Assembly: GCA_038918905.1 (NCBI GenBank)
Contig: JBCKZS010000010.1
Coordinates: forward strand, 638-64,637
Source of the DNA: Vicinamibacterales bacterium
Lineage (GTDB): Bacteria; Acidobacteriota; Vicinamibacteria; Vicinamibacterales; SCN-69-37
Reading direction: 5' to 3'
Length of the DNA: 64,000 bases
Part shown: positions 57,845 to 61,919 of the stretch, in pieces
Layout of the letters: the number at the start of each line of letters is the position of its first letter
How positions within the stretch are numbered: the first letter of the stretch is position 1
The notes under the pieces: model-generated
Databases searched by the model: none
Told to the model about the DNA's origin: nothing
What the model saw: the letters and a program-made list of their open reading frames with translations, nothing else
Position numbers and translations under genes: made by a program

Positions 57845-59103
57845 ACGGTAGCCTCCAAAACGATGTGCGCTCCATCTTTCATCCGCAGCTCGCCGGAGAT
57901 GAGCTTTGGCAGCAGCGTGTCGCGCAGGGCGGCGAGCGTGCGGGATTCGCGCTCGTTGGACACGACACGACTGTATAGAGGCCGAACCGTCTGATCGAAC
58001 GCGTCGAAGACGGTTCCAGGCGCAGCCACGACAGGAATCGGGCGGAAGTTGGCCTTGCTGATTTCGAGGAAAGTCGAGCCATTTGCGCGACTGACGATTT
58101 CCTCGTGCGCCCACTCCGCCCAGTAGAGCAGGAAGAGGTTCGACACGCCCGGGGCCGGAAGCATGGCGATAAACCCCTGATTGATTGCGACGGGGACTTC
58201 GGCCACGGCGAGGTATCCAATGGGCGCGCGGGAAGACAGCAGCACCGTCCCGGGCGGCAGAAGACCTGAGCCGATCTGGGTCAGGCCTGCATCGGTGATC
58301 TTGCGTTCCGTCTCAAGCAAGACCGGTGTCGCCAGACTCGAGAGGTCCTTCGGTGTGGCCCAGTAGTGCTGCCCTTCGTCCCAGAAAGAGGCCTCTTTGG
58401 TGCTCGGTGTGCTGCCGCCGACGACCTTCGCGAGCTCGCCGATCGACGCAACCCGCCACCTCTTGGGAATCTCCCCTAGCTCCGAGTCTTCGAAGGAATC
58501 CGGGAAGAGATCAGCGAGGGGCTTGGGGAGGCCGGGGTCGCGGCCTTCGGCCTTGGCGCGGACGGGGTCGAAGTCCACGAACCACGACTTGAAGAGCGCC
58601 CGCGCCATCGCCTCCAGCGTCTCGTTCATCCGCCGGTTCAGCTCGATCTTGTCGTCCAGCGTGCCGAGGATGTGGGCGATGGCACGCTGTTCGTGGAGTG
58701 GAGGCGTGAGCAGCGGAATCCTGTTCATGTTGCCCTGAGTCAGCTTCGGCATAGTCGAGCCGGTCAGGTATCCCCTGATCTCTGCCGCAGATAGCGCGTA
58801 CATCAGGAAGCGCGTATCCGCTTCGCTGTTGCCACGAACGATATGCGCGTGGTTGTTCACCCAGAACTTCCCGCGCGCAAGGAACGCGACTGGAGTATTC
58901 CGCGTCCGAAGATTCTCTCCATCTTCGGCGATGAGAAGGTACTCGCCGTCGAAGAGATAGTTGTCGACGTGATCCACGACTCCGGAGGCGCCGTAGTAAG
59001 GATACGGGCCAGGGCGCCGTTCAGCTTCCTTCACGGGCACACGGATGCCGTCGAAGTTCTCGGTCAGCTCGCCCAGCTCGCGCTCAATCCACTCACCCGC
59101 CAT
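57841..59103 (-). CDS. hsdS: type I restriction enzyme S (specificity) subunit
   Basis: Two TRD-like halves separated by conserved helices (PPLHEQRAIAHILGTLDDKIELNRRMNETLEAMARALFKSWFVDFDP; ...LAALRDTLLPKLISGEL). Alternative GTG start at 59109. Confidence 0.9.
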   Translation of the reverse strand: MAGEWIERELGELTENFDGIRVPVKEAERRPGPYPYYGASGVVDHVDNYLFDGEYLLIAEDGENLRTRNTPVAFLARGKFWVNNHAHIVRGNSEADTRFLMYALSAAEIRGYLTGSTMPKLTQGNMNRIPLLTPPLHEQRAIAHILGTLDDKIELNRRMNETLEAMARALFKSWFVDFDPVRAKAEGRDPGLPKPLADLFPDSFEDSELGEIPKRWRVASIGELAKVVGGSTPSTKEASFWDEGQHYWATPKDLSSLATPVLLETERKITDAGLTQIGSGLLPPGTVLLSSRAPIGYLAVAEVPVAINQGFIAMLPAPGVSNLFLLYWAEWAHEEIVSRANGSTFLEISKANFRPIPVVAAPGTVFDAFDQTVRPLYSRVVSNERESRTLAALRDTLLPKLISGELRMKDGAHIVLEATV

Positions 59104-59163
59104 ACCCACGCTCCTTCACGTTCGCGGCGACGGCACCGCCCGGCTTCGTAGCCTGCGCCCTGC
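59093..59163 (-). pseudogene. hsdM 3' stub
   Basis: ...AQATKPGGAVAANVKERGYGG* compared with the hsdM end ...[21 protein letters not shown]. About three quarters of 70 nt match by eye. Both ends use GGGTATGGC to start the next gene. Confidence 0.65.
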
Positions 59164-60310
59164 TCACGGCTTCCTCCGGCGAGCGCGTGGCGTCTCTTGC
59201 GATTCTCCGGAAAGCTCTGCCTCGATCTCCTCCACCGTCGGCAGGATCCCCTCCAGTTCCTTCGGCAGCGACTTGACGAGGCTCGTCTCCCACTGTGACA
59301 CGCCGATCGGCTTCTTGAGGTCGCGCAGCGCGTACTCCACCACGACCGCGTTCTTCGAGCGGCAGAGCAGCAGCCCGATGGTGGGCTTGTCGTCCGGATG
59401 GCGCAGCAGGTCGTCGGCCGCCGAGAGATAGAGATTCAGCTTCCCCACGAATGCCGGGGCGAACGCCACGGCCTTCAGCTCGACCACCACGTAGCAGCGC
59501 AGCTTCAAGTGGTAGAAGAGCAGGGTCCACCAGGAAGTCCTGGTCGCCGACCTCCAGCAGCACCTGCCTGCCCACGAAGGCGAAGCCGCTGCCCAGTTCC
59601 AGCAGAAAGCGCTGCACGTGATCGACGAGCGCCTCCTCCACCTCGCGCTCGCGGCGCGGGTCGGCGGTACCGAGGAAGTCGAACAGATAGGGGTCCTTGA
59701 AGACCTGGGCAGCGAGGTCGGACTCGCCGGGCGGCAGCGCCGCCGCGAAGTTGGTCAGCGCCTTGCCCTGGCGGTCGCGGGCGCGGCCCTGGATCTGGAG
59801 CACAAGGATGTTGTGCGACCAGCCCCGCTCGATGGCCTGGCGCGCGTACCAGAGGCGCTCGGCGGGGTCGTCGAGCTTCTCCAGCAGCGCGATGTGGTGG
59901 TACCAGGGCAATCGTGCAAGAGGCTCTTGCACGATTGCCCGCTCCGGCCAGGCCGCGGCGAACGCGCGCATGTACTTGAGGTTGCGCGGCGAGAAACCCT
60001 TCATGTCGGGGAACGCCTCGCGCAGGTCCGCGGCCAGGCGGTCGATCACCTTCGCGCCCCAGCCCGCGCTCTCCTGCCGCGCCAGGATCATCCGTCCGAT
60101 GTCCCAGTAGAGCAGGACCATCGCCGCGTTGGCGGACAGGACGACGCGCAGGCGCTCCTGCTGGATGCGCGACTTGATCGCGGCCAACGCGTCGGCGTAG
60201 TCCTGCGGGAGGGCAGTCCTGGCCGGCGCGACCGGAAAGCGCGCTTCGGGCCGGGCGCGGCCCCGCGCAAGCCGGATGTCGGCTTCCGGGCGGGAGCGCT
60301 TACGAGCCAT
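59164..60310 (-). pseudogene. YhcG/DUF1016-type PD-(D/E)XK nuclease, +1 frameshift
   Basis: N-part ...GSGFAFVGRQVLLEVGDQDFLVD and C-part LLFYHLKLRCYVVVELKAVAF...LSAADDLLRHPDDKPTIGLLLC are in different frames. There is an extra C in GACCCTG (59521..59527). Confidence 0.8.
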
Positions 60311-61919
60311 ACCCAAGCTCCTTCAGGTTGGCGGCGATGGCGGCATCCAGCTTCGCGGCCTCGGCCTGCTGCTCGCGCAGCGCCGCGGTGAGCCGCTTCA
60401 TCTTCTCGTCGAACGGCTCGCCGTCGTCCTCCTGCGCCTCGGCACCAACGTAGCGGCCTGGCGTGAGCACGTGGCCGTGTTTGCGCACGTCCTCCAGCAA
60501 CGCGCTCTTGCAGAAGCCGGCGATGTCCGCGTACTCGCCCGCGTCCTTCTCGCCGCCTGCCTGACCGGCAGGCAGGCGCCAGGCGTGGTAGGTGGCGGCG
60601 ATGCGGGCGATGTCCTCGTCCGTCAGCTCGCGGTGGGTGCGGTCCACGAGCGGTCCGAGCTTGCGGGCATCGATGAAGAGCACGTGGCCGCGGCGGTCAC
60701 GGAACTTGCCTGCCTGACCGGCAGGCAGGCCGTTCTTGCGGTCGCGCGCGAGGAACCAGAGGCACGCGGGGATCTGCGTCGAATAGAAGAGTTGGCCCGG
60801 CAGCGCGACCATGCAGTCCACGAGCTCGGCCTCGATCAGGCTCTTGCGGATTTCGCCCTCGCCGGACTGGTTCGACGACATCGAGCCGTTGGCGAGCACG
60901 AAGCCAGCCACGCCCGCTGGCGCCAAGTGGTGAACGATGTGCTGCACCCAGGCGAAGTTCGCGTTGCCCGATGGCGGCACGCCGTACTGCCAGCGCTTGT
61001 CGTCGCGCAGCCGCTCGCCGCCCCAGTCGGAGATGTTGAACGGCGGATTGGCGAGGATGAAGTCGGCCTTGAGATCGGGGTGCCGATCGTTGTGGAACGT
61101 GTCGCCATGTCCGATCTGGCCGTCGATGCCGCGGATGGCGAGGTTCATCTTCGCCAACCGCCACGTGGTGTAGTTCGACTCCTGGCCGTAAATCGAGATA
61201 TCTGGCCTGTGCTTGCTTCCATTCCCATTGCCGGACGCGTGCGCGCGGATGAACTCCACCGACTGCACGAACATGCCAGAGGATCCGCAGCAGGGGTCGT
61301 AGACACGGCCCCGATACGGCTCAAGCATCTCAACCAGCAGCTTGACCACGCAGCGCGGTGTGTAGAACTCGCCCCCCTTCTTGCCCTCGGCGCTCGCGAA
61401 CTGCGAGAGGAAATACTCGTAGACCCGACCGAGTTCGTCCCTGGCGCGGCTGGCCTCGTCGCCGACCCTGATGTTGCTGATGAGGTCGATCACCTGGCCA
61501 AGCCGCTCCTTGTCGAGCGCCGGACGCGCATAGTCCTTGGGCAACACGCTCTTGAGCGCCGGATTGTCGCGCTCGATCCCGGCCATCGCGTCGTCCACCA
61601 GCCGGCCGATGGTGGGTTGCCTGGCCTGCGCTTTCAGATGCGTCCAGCGCGCCTCGGGCGGCACCCAGAAGATGCTGTGGGCACGATACTCGTCCGGGTC
61701 TTCGGGGTCGGCGCCCCTGGACTGCTCGGTCACAAGCGCGGCGTGCCGCTCCTCGAAAGCGTCGGAGATGTATTTCAGGAAGAGCAGGCCAAGGACGACG
61801 TGCTTGTACTCGGCGGCGTCCATGCTGCCACGCAGCGCGTCGGCCATCTGCCAAAGCCTGGCTTCGTAGCCAACGGTGGCGGCGTGGTCGTCAGTGGTCT
61901 TTGACTTCTTCCCGGGCAA
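60300..61919 (-). CDS. hsdM: type I restriction enzyme M (methyltransferase) subunit
   Basis: GGAGG + TTG start giving (M)PGKKSKTT...[32 protein letters not shown]. Motif [11 protein letters not shown]. Motif IV NPPF. Confidence 0.93.

Follow-up and report, generated by a model that had tools for sequence, protein, structure and literature searches.

A second, decaying hsdM 3' end beside an embedded YhcG-like cassette in a Type I restriction-modification operon of a Vicinamibacterales bacterium

Defence genes embedded in Type I restriction-modification (R-M) operons are documented, the classic case being PrrC in EcoprrI (Payne et al., bioRxiv 10.1101/2024.01.29.577857). That study catalogues what is embedded, presents its PDC families as untested candidates and leaves the origin of embedding open in its discussion ('genomic sink'); its text does not mention homologous recombination and refers to duplication or repeats only in unrelated contexts. 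Searches for new defence systems draw on the genes embedded in R-M, BREX, DISARM and Hma loci, whose arrival there is treated as an open question. Here we examined a 64,000-nucleotide stretch (the window; 64 kb) from a Vicinamibacterales bacterium (assembly GCA_038918905.1, contig JBCKZS010000010.1, positions 638 to 64,637 of the forward strand), in which a YhcG-like gene lies between hsdM and hsdS of a Type I R-M operon and a second, decayed hsdM 3' end, hereafter the stub, directly precedes hsdS. As in the loci described by Payne et al., extra genes stand between hsdM, hsdS and hsdR in the same orientation, and the inserts match candidate families of that study (PDC-S02, PDC-S01 and PDC-M24A/B), with a SIR2-HerA pair embedded too. 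Embedding itself is known; the bracketing repeats are the element that we did not find described, since neither duplicated ends of flanking genes nor a mechanism of insertion came up in the limited literature searched, which is not proof of novelty.

Several better known systems share parts of this anatomy. Integrative elements that carry a replacement gene end, such as prophage e14 in icd and the islands in tRNA 3' ends, are likewise bracketed by two gene 3' ends, with the gene intact and a diverging pseudo-end on the far side, and direct repeats made of a gene's 3' end around an intact gene are also what we found here. Elements of the e14 type encode an integrase and recombine at a defined core, whereas the present insert consists of one 1.15-kb gene and carries no recombinase, and boundaries vary between loci, the left one by cassette type and the right junctions as well, with no constant crossover core among independent insertions. 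Homology-facilitated illegitimate recombination, which occurs in naturally transformable bacteria (Acinetobacter, pneumococcus), may resemble the present case in that one homologous flank (here hsdM, or hsdR) would anchor the incoming DNA, the other end being joined at microhomology, for example GAGCTGGG in locus L027 (L numbers are our handles for surveyed loci of relatives). The events described usually delete recipient DNA rather than duplicate it, and for duplication to be the outcome here, selection would have to enrich products in which hsdM is intact and hsdS can be expressed. Integron arrays also consist of serial, same-orientation, mostly promoterless cassettes, each with a repeated boundary element, as in L013, L001, L139 and L042, but here there is no IntI and no attC hairpin, and the repeat is a piece of a neighbouring coding gene; an integron cassette was rejected for want of an integrase among the ten main ORFs between 48846 and 62228, of an attC-type fold and of a boundary palindrome. 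Transposons likewise leave a direct target repeat on both sides of the insert, but one of 2-15 bp that is identical and accompanied by a transposase and terminal inverted repeats, whereas the repeats here span 71-76 nt at 72-76% identity (30-120 nt elsewhere) with none of these. Insertion of a transposon or insertion sequence was accordingly rejected, the duplication being too long and non-identical.

All genes and repeats of the window described below lie on the minus strand unless stated otherwise. The three core genes hsdM, hsdS and hsdR are clustered between 48846 and 61919 (Pfam N6_Mtase/HsdM_N, Methylase_S and HSDR_N/SWI2_SNF2/T1RH-like_C, respectively). The Type I methylase subunit gene hsdM occupies 60300..61919 (N6_Mtase 2e-104, HsdM_N 9e-28), with a TTG start at 61919 that was set by choice within a stop-to-stop open reading frame (ORF) extending to 62228. 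It is followed by the embedded YhcG-like gene (59164..60310) and by the specificity-subunit gene hsdS (57841..59103; Methylase_S 2e-39, in two stretches). The first-pass annotation, made from the sequence alone, had placed a second, diverged hsdM 3' end at 59093-59163, and would have dropped it had the similarity been no better than chance or had other DUF1016-containing hsd loci lacked such stubs. Aligned without gaps, 60300-60370 and 59093-59163 are identical at 51 of 71 bases, and a repeat search independently paired 59092-59159 with 60299-60366 (76% over 68 nt, spacing 1207). When each 71-mer was compared with every position on the two strands of the window (~128,000 placements), the mean was 20.2 matches (standard deviation 3.85) and the best unrelated placement scored 38. 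A DNA profile built exclusively from 28 uninterrupted hsdM/hsdS junctions of metagenomic relatives, with the window sequence excluded, matched the window at 60301-60388 (E 1.7e-24) and at 59093-59168 (E 9.1e-9), the next match having E = 2. The similarity is therefore far above chance, and many other DUF1016-containing hsd loci have equivalent stubs. In the direct repeat, the left copy is the working hsdM 3' end (60300..60388, from the profile match and the repeat search) and the right copy is the stub (59093..59168, from the profile match and alignment).

Most details of the initial description held at finer resolution. The hsdM end string quoted there is 70 nt long and not 71, and the two peptide tails stand as read, one given as 13 letters and the other as ...AVAANVKERGYGG followed by a stop. 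The stub had been said to begin exactly at the YhcG stop (59164), which is only approximate: the homology probably enters the YhcG stop codon and extends for another ~5 nt, as far as 59168. At its other end the stub overlaps the start of hsdS as described, with the stub TGA at 59095-59093 and the hsdS ATG at 59103-59101 sharing the overlap ATGGCGGGTGA. On the left side of the cassette the hsdM TAA (60302-60300) and the YhcG ATG (60310-60308) overlap as ATGGCTCGTAA, 11 nt in length. Stop/start coupling is thus retained on both sides, here and in other loci (fam1 GGGTATGGC..., fam2 GGGGTATGA; these hsdM families are introduced below).

The junction sequences indicate which copy is resident. The uninterrupted junctions end ...AAGGAGCTTGGGTATGGCGGGTGA, and their hsdS begins MAGEW. 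The stub of the window ends in the same canonical uninterrupted junction, GGGTATGGCGGGTGA, and for this reason the stub, rather than the working tail, is probably the resident copy, representing most simply the original hsdM stop/hsdS start junction. The working tail ends ...GGGTATGGCTCGTAA, a cassette (YhcG)-type junction common to L001 and L002 and found with a TAG stop in L005 and L094, and the YhcG-like ATG in this copy occupies the place that the hsdS ATG has in the stub; the working hsdM end would most simply be the copy associated with the cassette. From sequence comparison we regard it as established that a cassette was inserted at the hsdM/hsdS overlap and left the stub behind as the relic of an hsdM 3' end. 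The earlier proposal of an insertion at this junction with duplication of the gene end is supported by the profile and by the recurrence of the arrangement in other loci.

Recurrence was examined in two surveys, in both of which hsdS assignments rest on HsdS queries S2-S4 and Pfam. The first comprised 80 loci around YhcG-like relatives, one genome per species. Homologues of the YhcG-like protein, 63-84% identical, are spread over many bacterial phyla and also occur in Methanosarcinales and Methanosaeta metagenome-assembled genomes (MAGs); a full hsdM lies directly upstream of the gene in ~32 of the 80 loci, and about half of the homologues are outside hsd loci. Local alignment of the 240 nt surrounding the YhcG start with the 630 nt that follow its stop gave z >= 6 in 16 loci (null maxima <= 44), and a profile search added a 17th (L013), so that ~17 of the 32 hsdM-YhcG loci carry a duplicated hsdM tail, the archaeal MAGs (Methanosaeta, Methanosarcinales) included. 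These repeats are 30-102 nt long, end at the stop/start overlap and match the local hsdM family in each case. Three hsdM families are represented, fam1 (~85% identical to the window HsdM), fam2 (~34%) and that of L057 (~27%), and at least 2-3 right-junction types occur among the fam1 YhcG loci alone. The stubs form an erosion series, from full stubs through 30-nt in-frame remnants (in L048 the 30 nt are read in frame as the YhcG C-terminus) to fusions at the GAGCTGGG microhomology (L027). No stub was detectable in ~10 loci, of which L071 may keep a degenerate remnant of ~30 nt. Among cultured strains, the three plasmids Deinococcus aquaticus pDATS03, Deinococcus sp. D7000 p_1 and Polaromonas pH8NP2 have compact junctions or a different gene order, with no stub. 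Four orphan YhcG-like genes with no intact hsdM nearby carry 45-100 nt of hsdM 3' end directly upstream (L010 ~4927-4997, L014 ~630-740, L059 ~4955-5004 and L069 ~4926-4995), an arrangement that would fit a cassette travelling joined to an hsdM end. In L050 and L052 an hsdM N-terminal fragment is fused to the tail.

The second survey covered 80 metagenomic loci chosen as close relatives of the C-terminal half of the window HsdM. The site is empty in 38 of these, hsdS starting inside the hsdM end or, in L121, ~25 nt after it. Among ~33 assessable inserts, ~20 have a duplicated tail immediately before hsdS, 16 with repeat scores of 45-149 (null maxima <= 41) and four more by profile search. The inserts are YhcG-like, Fic-like, AlbA_2/Schlafen-like, RhuM-like, NYN-like, small toxin-antitoxin (TA)-like or unknown ORFs, and on the sequence evidence it can be taken as established that bracketing by tails is frequent and does not depend on the coding content of the cassette. 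The left boundary differs by cassette type, being placed right after the hsdM stop with YhcG-like genes, ~20 nt before it with AlbA_2-like inserts and ~30 nt before it with one Fic-like type, and in the AlbA_2-like and Fic-like cases HsdM has acquired a new C-terminus and the stub keeps the old one. Insertions can also be stacked. L013 (3642-6220) reads hsdM-tail-YhcGa-tail-YhcGb-tail-hsdS, with YhcG paralogues 55% identical to each other; L001 (3147-6211) reads hsdM-AlbA_2-tail-YhcG and then tail-hsdS; L139 (2365-4470) reads hsdM-AlbA_2-tail-YhcG; and three tails are present in L042 (809-2399).

The stubs have diverged further than the working tails. Across loci, private substitutions relative to the family consensus number 135 in stubs and 45 in working tails, and they fall more evenly across codon positions in stubs (50% at third positions versus 61-67% in tails, p about 0.03-0.06); the L002 stub has a frame-breaking insertion. 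Identity between tail and stub is highest, at 84%, in the -30..-11 bin containing the Shine-Dalgarno (SD) sequence, falls to 77-79% at -60..-31 and reaches background beyond ~-90, and nearly every stub retains AAGGAG or a near match to it. In the window an SD-like AAGGAG, read from the sequence, lies within the stub at 59111..59116, 7 nt upstream of the hsdS ATG. The window stub is among the most decayed, with 11 stub-only and no tail-only substitutions relative to the family consensus in 51 nt, several of which would break a helix if translated. Together these data in part show, and otherwise suggest, that the relic no longer codes for HsdM and that its upstream stretch is subject to drift. 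The stub region showed neither a promoter-like nor a terminator-like site, and an Rfam match to MH_s15 at 58864-59092 was put down to chance (18 bits against a gathering score of 123).

The cassette of the window shows decay of its own. The YhcG-like gene lies between core genes in their orientation, and its reading frame is not intact: a one-base insertion, an extra C in a C-run near 59522-59525, is the single window-specific indel relative to six homologues, and Pfam finds the DUF1016_N and YhcG_C (PD-(D/E)XK nuclease) halves in two frames. Once repaired, the product has the normal length of 381 aa (homologues ~380 aa, 74-84% identical) and matches the PADLOC candidate PDC-S02 with E 1.2e-148. 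The extra C marks either a pseudogene or a homopolymer sequencing error. Owing to it, a 407-aa ORF (59093-60316) continues across the stub, where it follows the former hsdM frame; the shifted frame is open for ~140 codons and ends at the stub TGA, and the 407-aa ORF thereby regains a direct stop/start overlap with hsdS. Decay of the window stub is in keeping with the adjacent frameshifted cassette.

A similar scar is present at a second junction of the operon, and the locus as a whole reads as a Type I R-M operon with four embedded cassettes. Downstream of hsdS follow a SIR2-like gene and HerA (~57835-54942; Pfam/PADLOC), a first hsdR 5' stub (54934-54877; repeat search), a DUF6978 gene with a DUF1828/1829 gene (54838-53586; Pfam/PADLOC, PDC-M24A/B), a second hsdR 5' stub (53442-53385; repeat search), an AAA_14/DUF4143 ATPase (53317-51998; Pfam/PADLOC, PDC-S01), hsdR itself (48846-52013; Pfam) and, after hsdR, a DUF262-type gene (PADLOC, PDC-M55C/HEC-05-like). 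The repeat search identified the two stubs, at 53385-53442 and 54877-54934, as diverged copies of the hsdR 5' end at 51933-51990 (90% and 81%), each standing before another embedded cassette, so that hsdR 5' copies bracket the PDC-M24 and PDC-S01 cassettes downstream of SIR2-HerA. Each of the three copies has an ATG and ~35-40 codons, and two of the three are in ATGA overlap with the stop of the preceding gene. This mirror-image anatomy fits the same scheme as the hsdM side; the analogy drawn in the first-pass annotation was sound as to structure, but hsdR stubs are much rarer elsewhere.

Taken together, we consider it probable, at roughly 0.75, that 59093-59168 is a pseudogene fragment or recombination scar, namely the displaced resident hsdM end with its original overlap, and that the cassette arrived by hsdM-anchored recombination. 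Along the route that we infer, a cassette would enter by recombination while joined to an hsdM 3' end (or to hsdR on the other side of the operon), the conserved neighbour gene acting as homology anchor, and its other end would be joined within the last 60-120 nt of the resident hsdM, either by homology-facilitated illegitimate recombination or through fusion of two hsdM-bearing segments followed by deletion. Because hsdM and hsdS overlap, only products that duplicate the junction would keep both a complete hsdM and an expressible hsdS. Such an event would account for the 1.15-kb YhcG-like gene now standing between relic and working hsdM end and for the two directly repeated copies of the junction segment, spaced 1207 nt. 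Recombination would eliminate long repeats, leaving stubs of 30-120 nt, and later deletion would produce the shorter ones; a repeat, once present, could offer short homology through which a cassette is lost or moved into other hsdM/hsdS junctions, or through which gene conversion takes place. On this route hsdM would be the long flank and the microhomology fusion of L027 an example of the joint, the window's own joint being too decayed to read. Identity of stubs to their own tails (0.75) and to other tails (0.72) is mixed and uninformative on the route.

A number of observations weigh against this reading. No donor/recipient pair, same-strain empty allele or recent transfer was found among the loci surveyed; an exact-protein search for the window HsdS (with two start choices) and HerA returned nothing on record elsewhere; and the closest inter-locus YhcG pair, 90% identical, shows no sharp identity breakpoint. 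About half of the inserts in both surveys have no detectable stub, which implies that the duplication is not obligatory or that it erodes completely. Stubs at hsdR are rare elsewhere, occurring in 3 of 45 loci with a full hsdR start (similar stubs in L108 and L117), a rarity expected where neighbouring genes do not overlap. The last ~30 nt of the stub (AAGGAG, a 7-nt spacer and the ATG) constitute a putative translation-initiation and ribosome-binding region of hsdS, and would thus have a present role; stubs of 55-120 nt exceed the ~20 nt needed for an SD, and selection on hsdS expression does not by itself account for that length. Finally, lineage-specific variants are common to both members of some tail/stub pairs (14 in L153, 4 in L109 and 3 in L003), and such sharing calls for gene conversion or a local origin and does not tell the routes apart.

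The best surviving alternative, which we nevertheless regard as unlikely, treats the repeats as att-like sites: a circular molecule of hsdM tail plus gene would integrate into any hsdM tail by a single crossover (RecA-dependent and Campbell-type, or catalysed by a recombinase in trans) and excise between the repeats, like an integron without a linked integrase. It would account for direct repeats that bracket the cassette exactly, for tail-cassette arrays, for the many different cassettes at the same site and for orphan YhcG genes with a 5' tail remnant, and the loose correlation of YhcG and hsdM identities (r = 0.51, with some discordant pairs) is also in its favour. Against it, Pfam found no recombinase or transposase domain in the ten main ORFs between 48846 and 62228, the YhcG-like ORF is the only one in the insert, and the stub has no attC-like folded site, its RNA fold being no better than that of shuffled sequences (z = 0.62). 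The repeat boundaries vary between cassette types and among YhcG loci (the at least 2-3 right-junction types of fam1), which makes a site-specific enzyme unlikely, 55-100 nt at 72-95% identity is a poor RecA substrate, and neither a circular form nor an empty allele was observed.

Far less probable is self-mobilisation, in which the YhcG-like PD-(D/E)XK nuclease would home or transpose its own gene into the junction, a long staggered cut being filled in to yield the duplication. The spread of a gene 63-84% identical across many bacterial phyla and archaea does argue for high mobility, its product is a predicted nuclease, and a conserved palindrome lies within its own coding sequence and, in some orphans, upstream as well. 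However, unrelated cassettes that encode no such nuclease (Fic-, AlbA_2-, NYN- and TA-like) show the same duplication at the same junction, the hsdR-side stubs of the window flank three other cassette types, the duplication varies in length from 30 to ~120 nt, no inverted repeat pairs the two cassette ends and no palindrome marks a boundary, and roughly half of the YhcG homologues occur outside any hsd locus. Chance or SD-driven convergence of two segments that both precede a start codon and need an SD, in 66% G+C DNA with strong codon bias, can be dismissed: the best-conserved part does contain AAGGAG and the ATG context, but 51 of 71 matches against a window-wide maximum of 38, a match of E 9e-9 to a profile from unrelated loci with the next at E = 2, homology over ~50 nt upstream of the SD, and repeats of up to 100-120 nt at 85-95% identity elsewhere (L040, L099, L130) reject it.

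The palindrome in the YhcG-like gene lies in the part encoding DUF1016_N (window 59906-59940, minus strand) and has perfect 17-bp arms around a 7-9-bp core, GTGCAAG/CTTGCAC. It is kept at the same codons in 83 distinct homologues (including L001-L139), with compensatory changes in the two arms that alter amino acids: 94 double-sided changes were counted against 33 ± 4 in shuffles, and 87% of cells were paired against 22-42% in slid controls. Additional copies lie upstream of three orphan YhcG genes (L076 ~4877-4910, L031 ~4935-4966 and L055 470-488). No Rfam family matched the palindrome and no link to the cassette boundaries was seen; from its sequence it may be an operator, a nuclease recognition site, or an RNA or single-stranded DNA hairpin. 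In one hsdM relative (L100, 597-615) a sequence ~100 nt ahead of the stop is identical to the YhcG palindrome at 24 of 25 positions (GTGCAACGGCTCGTTGCACAATTGC). A connection between palindrome and hsdM tail was considered and set aside as probably coincidental, only L100 having the palindrome in hsdM and other hsdM relatives showing no more than a loose resemblance at that place.

Elsewhere in the window, between 46925 and 57835, every gene embedded in or abutting the hsd operon (SIR2 and HerA, PDC-M24A/B, PDC-S01 and the DUF262-type gene) has a PADLOC family match, and the hsd operon can be described as a compact defence island. The spacer that separates the DUF1828/1829 gene from the second hsdR stub contains, at 53465-53529, a short array of tandem repeats whose period is ~10-11 nt (plus-strand reading GAATGAGCAGGAA-like).

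As physical traces of insertion, duplicated gene ends allow the resident copy to be told from the incoming one, and they show repeated and stacked insertions in which the translational coupling of the flanking genes was preserved each time. Somewhat speculatively, junction repeats may be a working grammar of embedding, in which modules of a conserved gene end plus a cassette populate Type I R-M and perhaps other tightly overlapped defence operons; the gene ends would act as portable homology arms for RecA-dependent capture, array stacking, precise loss and exchange across bacteria and archaea, amounting to an integrase-free cassette system. For the window alone the stub is a small evolutionary scar, and the interest lies in its generality. 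The signature, a second and decaying hsdM tail before hsdS, could be used to find embedded cassettes without a prior protein model, could date and order insertions, and could set up transformation assays of whether junction homology drives cassette gain and loss.

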